Assembly (NCBI GenBank): GCA_964016885.1
Contig: OZ024766.1
Location: 16,244,001-16,308,000, forward strand
DNA from: Eledone cirrhosa
Taxonomy: Eukaryota
Direction: 5' to 3'
DNA: 64,000 nucleotides
A program made the position numbers and the translations under genes. Positions 3,130 through 57,452 of the stretch are shown here, piece by piece. The notes beneath the pieces were generated by a model, which was given only the letters and a program-made list of their open reading frames with translations, had not been told where the DNA came from and ran no database searches. The first letter of the stretch is position 1. Every line of letters begins with the position of its first letter.

Positions 3130-4161
3130 ATGGAAAATAAATTAAGTGAAAAGAAGATTAAATGTGAAACAATGTCTAAAGATATGGCTATTACAGAAGA
3201 GATGTCAAAGGATAGAGGAGAGAAGCCATATCACTGTGATGTCTGTGGTAAATCATTCTCTCTAAGTCGTATATTAATTTGTCACATACGTACCCATACA
3301 GGTGACAAACCATATCACTGTGATATCTGTGGTAAATCATTCTCTGTAAGTAGTAACTTAACTAGCCACAAACGTACACATACAGGAGACAAGCCTTATC
3401 ACTGTGATATCTGTGGTAAATCATTCTCTTTTAGTAGTAATTTAACTTCTCACATACGTACTCATACAGGAGACAAGCCTTATAACTGTGATATCTGTGG
3501 TAAATCATTCTTTAATAATGTTAGTTTAACTAGCCACAAACGTACCCATTCAGGAGAGAAGCCATATCACTGTGATATCTGTGGTAAATCATTCTCTCAA
3601 AGTGGTCACTTAACTAGCCACAAACGTACCCATACAGGAGAGAAGCCATATCACTGTGATATCTGTGGTAAATCATTCTCTGATAGTAGTACCTTAACTA
3701 GCCACAAACGTATACATACAGGAGACAAGCCATATCACTGTGATATCTGTAGTAAATCATTCTCTGATAGTGGTACCTTAACTAGCCACATACGTATACA
3801 TACAGGAGAGAAGCCATATCACTGTGATATCTGTGGTAAATCATTCTCTGAAAGGGGTACCTTAACTAGACACAAACGTACTCATACAGGAGACAAACCA
3901 TATCACTGTGATATCTGTGGTAAATCATTCTCTCGAAGAAGTTACTTAACTGAGCACTTACGTATCCATACAGGTGAGAAGCCATATCGCTGTGATATCT
4001 GTGGTAAATCATTCTCTCAAAGTAGTCCCTTAACTCAACACTTACGTATCCATACAGGTGAGAAGCCACATCACTGTGATATCTGTGGTAAATCATTCTC
4101 TCAAAGTAGTCACTTAACTAAACACTTACGTATCCATACAGGAGACACGCCATACCACTGA
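3130..4161 (+). CDS. C2H2 zinc-finger protein, 11 fingers (12th lost to a frameshift)
   Basis: 343-aa ORF of 28-aa [20 protein letters not shown] repeats after a ~33-aa leader. A 2-bp deletion (cactgatatc for cactgtgatatc) creates the TGA. Confidence 0.93.
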
Positions 4162-4770
4162 TATCTGTGGTAAATTATTCACTCAATTAAGTAGTCTAAC
4201 TAAACACAAATATACCCATACAGGTAAGAAACCATAACAAAGTCATATCTCATTGTCTCAAAATTGTAAATTAATTAGACACAAATACATTCATATGAGT
4301 GAGAAGCCATACCACCCTGATATTGTGGAGAAATTATTCTCTTGTATTGCTACATTAACTACATACAAACATAAATATATACTGGAGAAAAGCCATATCA
4401 CTGTGATATCTGGGGGAAATTGTTATCTATAAAAGCGAGCTTAACTAGACACAAACATATACATACAGGAGAGAAACCATATCACTGTGATATCTGTGAG
4501 AAATCATTCTCTTAAATCAGTCACTTCACTCAGCACTAACATTTAGAGAAAAGAAAACATATCATTGTGATATCTGCAGTAAATCTTTCTCTAAATGTTG
4601 TGGCTTCACTACACACTAACATATACAGGAGAGGAACCATATCACTGTGATGTCTGTGGTAAATCCTTCTCTAAATGTTGTGGCTTCCCTACACACTAAC
4701 ATATACAGGAGAGGAACCATATAATTGTGATGTCTGTGATAAATCATTTTCTAAATGTTGTGGTACCAAC
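4162..4770 (+). pseudogene. Decayed zinc-finger repeats downstream of the stop (3'UTR)
   Basis: Out-of-frame, stop-ridden finger units. Equivalents lie at ~18304-18905, 27901-28425, 35936-36620, 47066-47515 and 57453-57975. Confidence 0.85.
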
Positions 4771-4861
4771 ATAAGGTTACTTAATGTAACACAAACACAA
4801 TCAGACAAGATAAAAACTGTCACTCACCCAAAATAGTGCCACCAATGTTGTTAGTATCTTG

Positions 4862-54500: not shown

Positions 54501-55430
54501 CCATCAGCTAGCTTGGACTCGCTACATGACTTTGCCAGAAACTTTGCATATACTTTACCAGGGAGTCTTAACAAGGTGATCCCTCTCTATTTGGGACAAT
54601 CTCTCGTGTGTCCCTTTTTATAAATTGGGATTATCACTCCCGATTGCCTTGCTTGAGTGCCATTTCAGAGACCCAGGCCATCTGACACACATGAGTCGGT
54701 CACATTTGAGCTCTTTAATTGCTCTTGTGACCTCAGCCTCCGAGAGATTAGTCACCGCTATCAGATTCACCTCATGTACATCCGAAGATGCTGTTGTGAT
54801 CGGGTTTGTGAGATCAGCAAAGTATTCTCTCCACCTCATGAGGATCCATCTCTCTGAAGAGAAAAGAACCCCAGATACACTCATGGTTGCAGGTGTGGAG
54901 AAAGATTTCTTGTAACTAATTAAAAACTAAAATAATTTGATTTTTCAATAAAAAGTTTCCAGGGTTTATAGATGTAAAATTTCCACTGTTAAATCTATCT
55001 CTGCTTCTTAAGTATTCTCTATTATTCATACTGTTTCTTTTTCATTTCAGAATATCAGATGACATTGGGATAAATTATTATTTTCAATCTTGGATACATC
55101 ACCTCTATTTATCATCATTTGAAGATTAAAACTTTTTAAACAGAACTTATATAACACTGTTTATATAAATCTATCAGAATTACTGTGATATATTTCCTCA
55201 GAACTGAGTTGAAAGACATAATTCCTTTTCTTCACTGTGTGGTATATATATGAAAGATATATTTTGTATTTTAACTCAACTTCAATGACAAAGAAGTTTG
55301 CATCATCTTCAGGTATTAACTGAGATCATAATTGAGGAAAATATAACGGAAGAAATATTTTTTAGGAATATAATATAAAAAATATTAAAGAATAAAATCT
55401 GTAAATTCTGCTAAGGGAAGAAGAATTAGT

Positions 55431-57452
55431 ATGGAAAATAAATTGAGTGAAAAGATTAAATGTGAAACAATGTCTAAAGATATGGCTATTACAGAAGAGA
55501 TGTCAAAGGATAGAGGAGAGAAGTCATATCACTGTGATGTGTGTGGTAAATCATTCTCTCGAAGTAGTAGATTAACTAGCCACAAACGTACACATACAGG
55601 AGACAAGCCTTATCACTGTGATATCTGTGGTAAATCATTCTCTTTTAGTAGTAATTTAACTTCTCACATACGTACTCATACAGGAGACAAGCCTTATAAC
55701 TGTGATATCTGTGGTAAATCATTCTTTAATAATATTAGTTTAACTAGACACGAACGTACCCATTCAGGAGAGAAGCCATATCACTGTGGTAAATCATTCT
55801 TTGTTAATAGTAATTTAACTAGACACAAAAGTATACATACAGGAGAGAAGCCATATCACTGTGATATCTGTGGTAAATCATTCTCTCGAAGAAGTTACTT
55901 CACTAGCCACAAACGTACCCATACAGGAGACAAGCCATATCACTGTGATATCTGTGGTAAATCATTCTCTGATAGTAGTACCTTAACTGGCCACAAACGT
56001 ATACATACAGGAGACAAGCCATATCACTGTGATATCTGTGGTAATTCATTCTATAATAGTAGTACCTTAACTGGCCACAAACGTACACATACAGGAGACA
56101 AGCCATATCACTGTGATATCTGTGGTAAATCATTCTCTTTTAGTAGTAATTTAACTTCTCACATACGTACTCATACAGGAGACAAGCCTTATCACTGTGA
56201 TATCTGTGGTAAATCATTCTTTGTTAATAGTAATTTAACTAGACACAAAATTATACATACAGGAAAGAAGCCATATCACTGTGATATCTGTGGTAAATCA
56301 TTCTCTCGAAGAAGTTACTTAACTGGCCACAAACGGACACATACAGGAGAGAAGCCATATCACTGTGATATCTGTGGTAAATCATTCTCTGATAGTAGTA
56401 CCTTAACTGGCCACAAACGTATACATACAGGAGAGAAGCCATATAACTGTGATATCTGTTGTAAATCTTTCTTTAATAATATTAGTTTAACTAGACACGA
56501 ACATACCCATTCAGGAGAGAAGCCATATCACTGTGATATCTGTGGTAAATCATTCTTTGTTAATAGTAATTTAACTAGACACAAAAGTATACATACAAGA
56601 GAGAAGCCATATCACTGTGATATCTGTGGTAAATCATTCTCTGAAAGTGGTACCTTAACTAGCCACAAACGTATCCATACAGGAGAGAAGCCATACCACT
56701 GTGATATCTGTGGTAAATCATTCTCTCAAAGTAGTACCTTAACTAGACACAAACGTATACATACAGGAGAGAAGCCATATAACTGTGATGTCTGTGGTAA
56801 ATCTTTTTCTGAAAGTGGTACCTTAACTAGACACAAACGTATACATACAGTAGAGAAGTCGTATCACTGTGATATCTGTGGTAAATCATTCTTTGTTAAT
56901 AGTAATTTAATAAGACACAAACGTAAACATACAGGAGACAAGCCATATCACTGTGATATCTGTGGTAAATCATTCTTTGTTAATAGTAAATTAACTAGAC
57001 ACAAACGTATACATAAAGTAGACAAGCCATACCACTGTGATATCTGTGGTAAATCATTCTCTGAAAGTGGTACCTTAACTAGACACAAACGTACACATAC
57101 AGGAGACAAGCCATATCGCTGTGATATCTGTGGTAAATCATTCTCTGTTAGTGGTAGCTTAACTAACCACAGACGTATACATACAAGAGAGAAGCCATAT
57201 CACTGTGATACCTGTGGTAAATCATTCTCTCAAAGTCCTGGCTTAACTAGCCACAAACGTACTCATACAGGAGAGAAGCCATATCACTGTGATATCTGTG
57301 GTAAATCATTCTCTGAAAGTGGTAACTTAACTAGCCACAAACGTATACATGCAGGAGAGAAGCCATATCACTGTGATATCTGTGGTAAATCATTCTCTCA
57401 ATTTAGTAGTTTAACTAGACACAAATATACCCATACAGGTAAAAAACCATAA
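55431..57452 (+). CDS. C2H2 zinc-finger protein, 23 fingers (finger 4 has a 9-bp deletion removing a Cys)
   Basis: 673-aa ORF of tandem C2H2 repeats. Confidence 0.95.

Follow-up and report, generated by a model that had tools for sequence, protein, structure and literature searches.

The window considered here, a stretch of 64,000 nucleotides of Eledone cirrhosa DNA (C27:16244001-16308000), holds six zinc-finger (ZNF) genes. Our analysis places them in a tandem array of 95 effector-less C2H2 copies that exchange 84-bp finger units, most likely through unequal crossover with conversion, while selection would act on the reading frame and on the residues that contact DNA. We put the probability of this reading as a whole at about 0.78. 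According to it, misaligned homologous exchange would be the cause of the reshuffled finger arrays, diversifying selection would work upon them, and new DNA-binding specificities would be the outcome.

The extent of the array became visible when 1.264 Mb around the window were examined for further cassettes. In total 95 copies of the leader that opens each gene lie at C27:15.761-16.838 Mb, the first 52 on the forward strand and the following 43 on the reverse strand, forming a 1.08-Mb array with a leader spacing of mostly about 10 kb and zero N within it. The cluster contains 1,465 fingers, 1,443 of them with all four ligands, and 198 distinct helices; its 95 cassettes encode 59 distinct helix arrays and 75 distinct proteins, and the arrays group into 30 families, some of which comprise 3-8 copies. 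The standard terminal peptide stands at the end of the open reading frame (ORF) in 76 of the 95 genes, and one copy has CTG where the others have the start ATG. Moreover, part of the window block recurs about 315 kb upstream (99.2% over 48 kb), and five of the six genes of the window are matched there by a twin that differs by 0-1 amino acids.

For the six genes of the window, most of the first-pass annotation was reproduced. The six forward-strand ORFs carry 11, 21, 18, 10, 14 and 23 fingers, 97 altogether, as counted before, and all open with a near-identical 30-residue leader; the seven helices singled out there all recur within and between the six genes; and the flanks, said to be a few percent apart, differ in their non-repetitive parts by 2.2-3.9% upstream and 3.1-3.9% downstream. 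The fingers are tandem C2H2 fingers of the Kruppel type, CxxC-x12-HxxxH units joined by TGEKP-type linkers at a 28-residue period. Both proteins scanned with Pfam exceeded the cut-offs of zf-C2H2 and zf-H2C2_2 by a wide margin, and in the scan of gene 4 the main matches above cut-off were all zinc-finger-type families.

A further observation concerns the order of the fingers. The nearest neighbour of each internal finger was scored as standing at the same position, at a shifted position or in the same gene, with shuffled finger order as the null. Among the window genes the neighbour is collinear for 24.1 of 85 fingers (28%) against 20.8 +- 3.1 in shuffled order (24%); for another 44.2 it is shifted, and for 16.7 it belongs to the same gene. 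In the control ZNF cluster on C3, with an upstream divergence of 4.3%, it is collinear for 122.5 of 131 fingers (93%). With one gene taken per family, sister clusters of the focal one reach 28% collinear against 19% by chance, and the C3 control 90% against 30%. The mode of array evolution thus differs by subfamily, shuffled in the focal and sister clusters and collinear in the C3 cluster, so that two modes are found in one genome. This C3 control is a second ZNF cluster with a period of about 10 kb, at C3 147.62-147.73 Mb, which has another leader and whose fingers stay collinear.

Fingers are moreover shared as blocks, as had been proposed. When 27 representative arrays were compared between families at the nucleotide level (3 of the 30 families, being shortened or internally repeated forms of other families, were not used), sharing extended to 91 of 364 internal finger pairs and to 27 of 337 triplets, where shuffling gave means of 12.5 and 0.1. 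For example, units 1-9 of gene 79 are those of gene 68 with 0-1 difference per unit; from unit 11 on they are those of gene 94 shifted by 7 units, again with 0-1 difference, and the 3' flank of gene 79 lies 0.5% from that of gene 94. Gene 79 is a clean out-of-register chimera of two paralogues. Exchange also reaches inside the unit, since all four gametes occur at 67-90% of its variable site pairs, which means that hybrid fingers form. The claim of shuffling within and between paralogues is therefore supported, and so is that of a homogenisation like that of PRDM9: the divergence of finger cores within a gene is 1.9% in the focal cluster, 3.6-4.8% in the sister clusters and 13.3% in the C3 control, and concerted evolution of the PRDM9 type together with diversity at the contact positions is what the cluster displays. 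The helix sets are largely private to each cluster: helix DNA of the focal cluster recurs in only 21 of the 662 fingers from sister loci and in 0 of the 294 from more distant ones.

The composition of the arrays bears probable traces of selection, which would maintain the reading frame and promote diversity among the residues that contact bases. The spacing of coding units is exactly 84 bp in 1,299 of 1,309 intervals and breaks frame in 4, while behind the stop frame-breaking spacing is found in 375 of 478 intervals, partly through shared ancestral events. For the diversity measures 425 distinct internal units were used. The expected concentration of variation at helix positions -1, 2, 3 and 6 was confirmed, with a non-synonymous diversity (piN) of 0.47 there against a synonymous diversity (piS) of 0.149 at the other codons, +1 being left aside; helix +8 and +10 are variable too. 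Heterozygosity at positions 1 and 2 of the contact codons is 0.21-0.64, compared with a median of 0.028 at 24 synonymous third positions (p=3e-5), and values above 0.3 occur at 10 of the 12 contact sites, at 9 of the 72 remaining ones and, in a neutral satellite, at 2 of 82 sites. Third positions at -2, +1, +2 and +4, next to the contact codons, have a piS of 0.005-0.017, which argues against a regional mutation hotspot. At -1, +3 and +6 there are 23-24 codon alleles, and alleles present in at least three families are more frequent among non-synonymous contact alleles (38 of 54) than among synonymous ones (32 of 72; p=0.004). Tree-based codon models are unsuited to such arrays because conversion leaves no single tree, and Baker et al. 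(PMC5519329; this and the other papers are quoted for the portions available) likewise state that conversion breaks tree-based dN/dS for them.

Several results weigh against so strong a reading of shuffling and selection. Within the contact codons alone piN/piS is only 1.15, and the distinct contact-codon alleles, 54 non-synonymous to 26 synonymous, are not above the neutral ratio of 3-4. Outside the contacts, non-synonymous alleles are as widespread across families as synonymous alleles (52 of 108 and 32 of 72, respectively; p=0.65), so that the framework apart from the ligands is under weak purifying selection; the sites are moreover non-independent, which makes all these p-values optimistic. 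The contact sites account for 0.42 (0.35-0.48) of the amino-acid diversity, a small gap from the 0.38 of the C3 control, and below the 0.49 and 0.55 given for salmonid PRDM9 (PMC11703093, as far as available). The standard ORF end is lost in 19 of the 95 genes. Shuffling is also incomplete: the first-pass annotation had named a grouping of fingers by orthologous position as a test, and such a grouping, which does not appear in the window, is partly present across families, where one gene per family gives 44% collinear against 26% by chance and hence some positional memory.

How fast the arrays change was followed in 2,687 pairs of 76 full-length genes, with unique segments taken as flanks. Of the 16 pairs below 0.2% flank divergence, 13 have the same array, and the median edit fraction is 0; the median helix-array edit fraction rises to 0.26 at 0.5-1% and to 0.91-0.95 above 1.5%. 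Among 40 closest-pair comparisons we counted 18 whole-unit indel events, of which 4 fall in one mis-grouped pair and some are a single event counted on two edges. In the closest pairs the nucleotide differences are 0.34% in the arrays and 0.34% in the flanks, so there is no sign of targeted hypermutation. Moreover, copy number changed in young pairs for the 82-bp satellite of the cassettes in 27 of 34, for a 115-bp repeat in 16 of 39, and for the finger array in 7 of 34. The non-coding satellites of the same cassettes thus change their unit number faster than the fingers, and no special shuffling machine is needed; the idea of a special generator of arrays finds no support.

The flanks themselves take part in the exchange. 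Among pairs of variable sites in them, 48-77% fail the four-gamete test, and linkage is low, with r2 of 0.10 within 100 bp and 0.03 across the array. Since the flanks recombine too, a divergence of about 3% is likely not an age, and the recency implied by flanks only a few percent apart is not supported in that form. It is likely, judging from the variants, that the whole cassette is under concerted evolution and that the 3% reflects a balance of mutation and exchange. The 82-bp satellite is homogenised, with a divergence of 0.062 between cassettes and 0.061 within.

The events may be pictured as follows. The layout shows that a ZNF cassette multiplied in tandem, that whole blocks were copied afterwards, and that one inversion took place. 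Neighbouring cassettes would then pair and exchange DNA, a step suggested by the four-gamete violations and by discordant 5' and 3' neighbours. With a period of 84 bp, or 28 codons, any exchange out of register leaves the frame intact and results in reordered or hybrid fingers; pairing out of register within the exon would in this manner yield the deletions, duplications, chimeras and hybrid fingers, products that are seen in the cluster. Conversion would homogenise the framework, with selection retaining the contact variants, and the new arrays would bind new sequences, as predicted from the established C2H2 recognition rules.

What the proteins do can be approached from their domains. The proteins are predicted to be sequence-specific DNA binders, and, as far as DNA alone can tell, no known effector is attached to them. 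A KRAB domain was not found by Pfam on two proteins, by a check for upstream stops, or in the spacer of one cassette. As for the KRAB-SSXRD-SET part of PRDM9, all 95 cassettes have an in-frame stop 15 codons ahead of the ATG position, which makes the 5' part of the coding exon non-coding, and none of these domains occurs in 90 stop-to-stop spacer frames of at least 35 residues from one cassette, which gave no meaningful Pfam match (12 of 102 frames, of finger-like DNA, being omitted). The earlier description of the genes as KRAB-independent therefore stands in so far as no effector domain was found. In the leader, non-synonymous differences (pN) are about equal to synonymous ones (pS), giving no purifying signal. 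A hydrophobic-K-x-E motif, which we take to be a SUMO consensus, is present in the leaders of 95 of 95 focal and 31 of 40 sister genes, for instance at window positions 3130-3220. The leader was considered as an effector and dropped, with pN about equal to pS and nothing relevant found in the literature consulted. The first 60 residues matched best, among 12 protein matches, the Octopus sinensis zinc finger protein 239-like at 45% identity.

Transposon or other repeat DNA is our preferred candidate for the target, a hypothesis that we hold at slightly less than even odds. Neural or developmental regulation as the selective agent is possible but rather doubtful, and what weight remains goes to little function or something else. 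According to the former of these alternatives, the arrays would diversify as neural or developmental transcription factors rather than against transposons, by the same shuffling mechanism; it gains from the report that cephalopod C2H2 expansions are expressed mainly in nervous tissue (available part of PMC12513265) and from the repressor domain that was looked for and not found. However, rapid turnover and cluster-private helices would fit conflict better, and predicted octopus ZNF motifs are enriched in consensus sequences of transposable elements (TE), a result that applies to the family as a whole and not to this cluster (PMC10547256, in part). A further proposal goes beyond the exchange of units and is equally tentative: the cluster may be a germline combinatorial library of about 200 helices, kept by diversifying selection and re-dealt among about 95 effector-less genes through out-of-register exchange, which would give each animal its own arrays recognising young transposons or satellites without KRAB; it would amount to an adaptive defence of the genome at the level of the population, and would have evolved independently in octopods. 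A dedicated or somatic system of diversification, driven by a recombinase or mutator and possibly at work in neurons, seems extremely improbable to us. The helices do look combinatorial, 50 of 99 combinations of common (-1,+1) and (+2,+3) pairs being found, but most of the youngest twins have identical arrays, the array differences do not exceed those of the flank, the non-coding repeats turn over faster, and the 90 spacer frames of one cassette contain no enzyme domain.

Other alternatives concern the locus rather than its function. It is conceivable, but improbable, that the cluster is a neutral macrosatellite, that is, a tandem repeat prone to recombination in which a ZNF exon is included by chance, with shuffling as a by-product and little function. 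The faster copy-number change of the two non-coding repeats, the homogenised satellite, the leader without purifying signal, the allele counts not above the neutral ratio and the truncation of one fifth of the ORFs (19 of 95) would all suit it; against it stand the frame, kept among coding units and lost behind the stop, the four ligands retained in nearly all fingers, and diversity that peaks on the contact codons beside almost invariant third positions. An assembly artefact, in which uncollapsed haplotypes or mis-joined repeats make the array or its chimeras, is very unlikely: the upstream twin block is at a level that alleles could show, yet the cluster is gapless, with 30 array families and families of 3-8 copies, nearly all coding units keep their exact spacing, and short reads with the same species label, including a run from another sample, cover cassette-specific DNA (at uncalibrated depth). 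No more credible is a Helitron-borne gene, amplified by rolling circle from a Helitron with a captured ZNF gene. About 90 of the 95 cassettes do hold a Helitron fragment, and homology begins at the left end of the array, and ceases at both inner ends, at the fragment edge near window position 21380. But the fragment is about 1.1 kb long, antisense, stop-ridden and internal to a helicase gene that runs on into the left flank; the right array end begins about 120 bp further out; and the edge lies against a further repeat fragment, as a simple breakpoint of duplication would. The array ends were inspected by alignment only, with no systematic search for Helitron termini. With these alternatives weighed, exchange of 84-bp units under selection on frame and contacts is the reading that we retain.

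The features of the window are collected in Table 1.

Table 1. Features of the window, numbered from its first letter.
Feature	Position	Strand	Remarks
Predicted splice acceptor, gene 1	2736..2749	+	380 nt before ATG
ZNF gene 1 (cluster gene 42/95)	3130..4161	+	30-aa leader and 11 fingers
Long interspersed nuclear element (LINE) ORF	7467..10577	+	1,037 aa stop to stop; endonuclease, reverse transcriptase, PHD; between genes 1 and 2
ZNF gene 2 (gene 43)	16438..18303	+	leader and 21 fingers, TGKKP end
Degenerate finger units behind stop	18304..18897	+	one set per cassette; unselected control
Broken Helitron Rep/helicase fragment	21380..22490	-	in about 90/95 cassettes
Predicted splice donor GTAAGT	23636..23641	+	non-coding first exon, gene 3 cassette
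ZNF gene 3 (gene 44)	26290..27900	+	leader and 18 fingers
ZNF gene 4 (gene 45)	34994..35935	+	leader and 10 fingers
82-bp satellite	38897..42319	.	42 copies here
82-bp satellite, other sites	12169, 21753, 29594, 49049, 61137		
ZNF gene 5 (gene 46)	45788..47065	+	leader and 14 fingers; fingers 2-3 repeated as 4-5
ZNF gene 6 (gene 47)	55431..57452	+	leader and 23 fingers

Some of the individual fingers depart from the common scheme. The ORF of gene 1 is cut short by the loss of 2 bp in the twelfth unit, which throws the usual last finger out of frame, and the near-fixed TGKKP finger described earlier is consequently found in frame in five of the six genes and lost in this one. Unit 19 of gene 2 has a Cys changed to Arg, unit 12 of gene 3 has a 3-bp deletion, and unit 4 of gene 6 has a 9-bp deletion that removes a Cys; the helix DNA of fingers 2-4 of gene 6 is that of fingers 3-5 of the family of gene 4. 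The framework had been called almost invariant, even at synonymous sites, and this holds in part. Most sites are 92-100% modal, although just 42 of the 95 window fingers of regular length carry the 32-nt framework motif without a mismatch; the C-D-I-C-G-K-S core, Leu+4 and the histidines are synonymously near-invariant (piS 0-0.04), but the linker is variable, with piS of 0.41 at Gly, 0.91 at Lys and 0.48 at Tyr.

Each cassette runs from a predicted donor through an intron to a predicted acceptor and a single coding exon, followed by degenerate finger units behind the stop. The intron, which is called from splice motifs and not from RNA, contains SINE-like (short interspersed nuclear element) and 115-bp repeats. 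In 92 of 95 cassettes an acceptor is predicted some 380-500 nt ahead of the ATG; the donor is present in 80 of 95, altered in 1 and not found in 14. Four sequence runs, none of them on record as RNA, gave mostly repeat-derived coverage and no splice joint when aligned to window positions 6300-16700. In the predicted 5' untranslated region (for example window 2750-3129) there are 2-5 upstream ATGs in the 92 cassettes examined, and translational control is possible.

As for the passenger elements, homologues of the Helitron fragment carry PF14214 and PF05970, and a protein atlas gave no usable match for the fragment. Within it sits the 82-bp satellite, with which unit turnover under neutrality was gauged above and which has from 0 to more than 120 copies per cassette; it seems to have arisen by amplification of part of the Helitron helicase coding sequence. 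Two cassettes of the cluster hold the 5' part of the LINE, with an identity of about 100%, and its insertion therefore likely preceded the block duplication. Upstream of gene 1, window positions 1-760 and 2000-2600 hold degenerate sequence that, judged by eye, resembles the 3' part of a LINE, and the stretch at 2000-2600 is common to nearly all cassettes. At 19826-19945 there is a near-perfect palindrome of about 100 bp, with no counterpart behind gene 1, which is possibly a folded-back transposon remnant.

Beyond the window, the strand switch of the array lies at C27:16388000-16403000, where the two halves meet tail to tail. Both inner ends break off at the same cassette position, and between them is a repeat with a 78-bp period, part of it inverted. 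Three spacers of 32-45 kb break the 10-kb period at C27:16044000-16117000 and 16343000-16388000, and some cassettes near them hold very long 82-bp satellites. The outer flanks of the array have only simple repeats in common. Relatives of the leader occur on several other contigs at 73-88% identity (150 matches scored of 478 candidates); the family is seen at C27 19.4-20.05 and 21.87-21.90 Mb and on C4, C18, C28, C12, C25, C26 and C289, and every one of these dispersed clusters combines internal finger repeats with a serine-rich set of helices peculiar to it. Genome-wide, 2,367 exact occurrences of the 32-nt framework motif were counted, of which 655 fall within the 95-cassette cluster.

The value of the locus lies in the stages that it presents together: identical twins, single block deletions, a two-parent chimera and arrays completely scrambled at about 2% flank divergence, beside a collinear control. 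The cluster therefore yields rates and breakpoints for array change, its about 200 natural helices on one framework form a compact set for learning the recognition code, and it is a concrete target for asking what role the large octopus C2H2 expansion has. If the arrays are monomorphic or silent, this value falls to that of a good example of concerted evolution. The origin of new zinc-finger specificities is described as an open question even for mouse KRAB-ZFPs (PMC11952569, in the portion available). Zinc-finger genes are reported as prone to internal rearrangement and gene conversion (10.1101/2022.11.29.518450, the preprint of PMC10547256), and among human protein repeats rapid unit turnover is rare, zinc fingers making up more than half of the cases (PMC3995336), both as stated in the accessible parts of these papers.

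The cluster can be compared with several known systems; in its workings it resembles the PRDM9 minisatellite and young KRAB-ZFP clusters, without belonging to either family. Like PRDM9, as described in the available parts of PMC5519329 and PMC11703093, it is built on an 84-bp coding minisatellite with a homogenised framework, diversity at -1, 2, 3 and 6, and unit gain and loss by conversion and duplication; unlike PRDM9, it has no KRAB, SSXRD or SET, and about 95 paralogues share one finger pool, where PRDM9 consists of alleles of one gene. With the mouse Chr4 KRAB-ZFP cluster (PMC11952569, in part) it has in common that it is large, young and tandem, with multi-gene block duplications and many distinct fingerprint arrays, and the finger arrays of mouse KRAB-ZFP paralogues are said to evolve by 'drifting and shifting' (accessible part of PMC5363842). 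It differs in the lack of KRAB, the single predicted coding exon, the 30-residue leader and the roughly 10-kb cassettes about 3% apart; moreover, TE repression has been demonstrated for the mouse KRAB-ZFPs, whereas transposons are a candidate target for the present cluster. Other KRAB-less, lineage-specific expansions of tandem fingers are the zebrafish FiNZ-ZNFs, which are under positive selection and repress young TEs (PMC10547256, in part), and the hemipteran ZF271-like genes, in which fingers are the sole domain and vary in number (PMC6444547, in part); the octopod cluster belongs to an independent lineage, and its leader is without purifying signal. The motif enrichment in TE consensus sequences for octopus ZNFs is, in the portion of PMC10547256 available, a prediction without experimental validation. 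Among cephalopods the cluster resembles other C2H2-ZNF expansions in being lineage-specific, clustered and multi-finger, but those surveys, as far as their texts were available, deal with gene counts, clusters and expression (PMC9068888, PMC12513265), and the present result concerns finger-level exchange between paralogues, of which we found no description in the literature consulted, mostly non-subscription papers without supplements. To sum up, PRDM9-like behaviour is shared here among about 95 effector-less paralogues, in a milder form in the sister clusters, and while the ingredients, namely unequal crossover, a minisatellite of the PRDM9 type and clustered ZNF expansion, are known, their combination across a whole KRAB-less cluster appears to be new.

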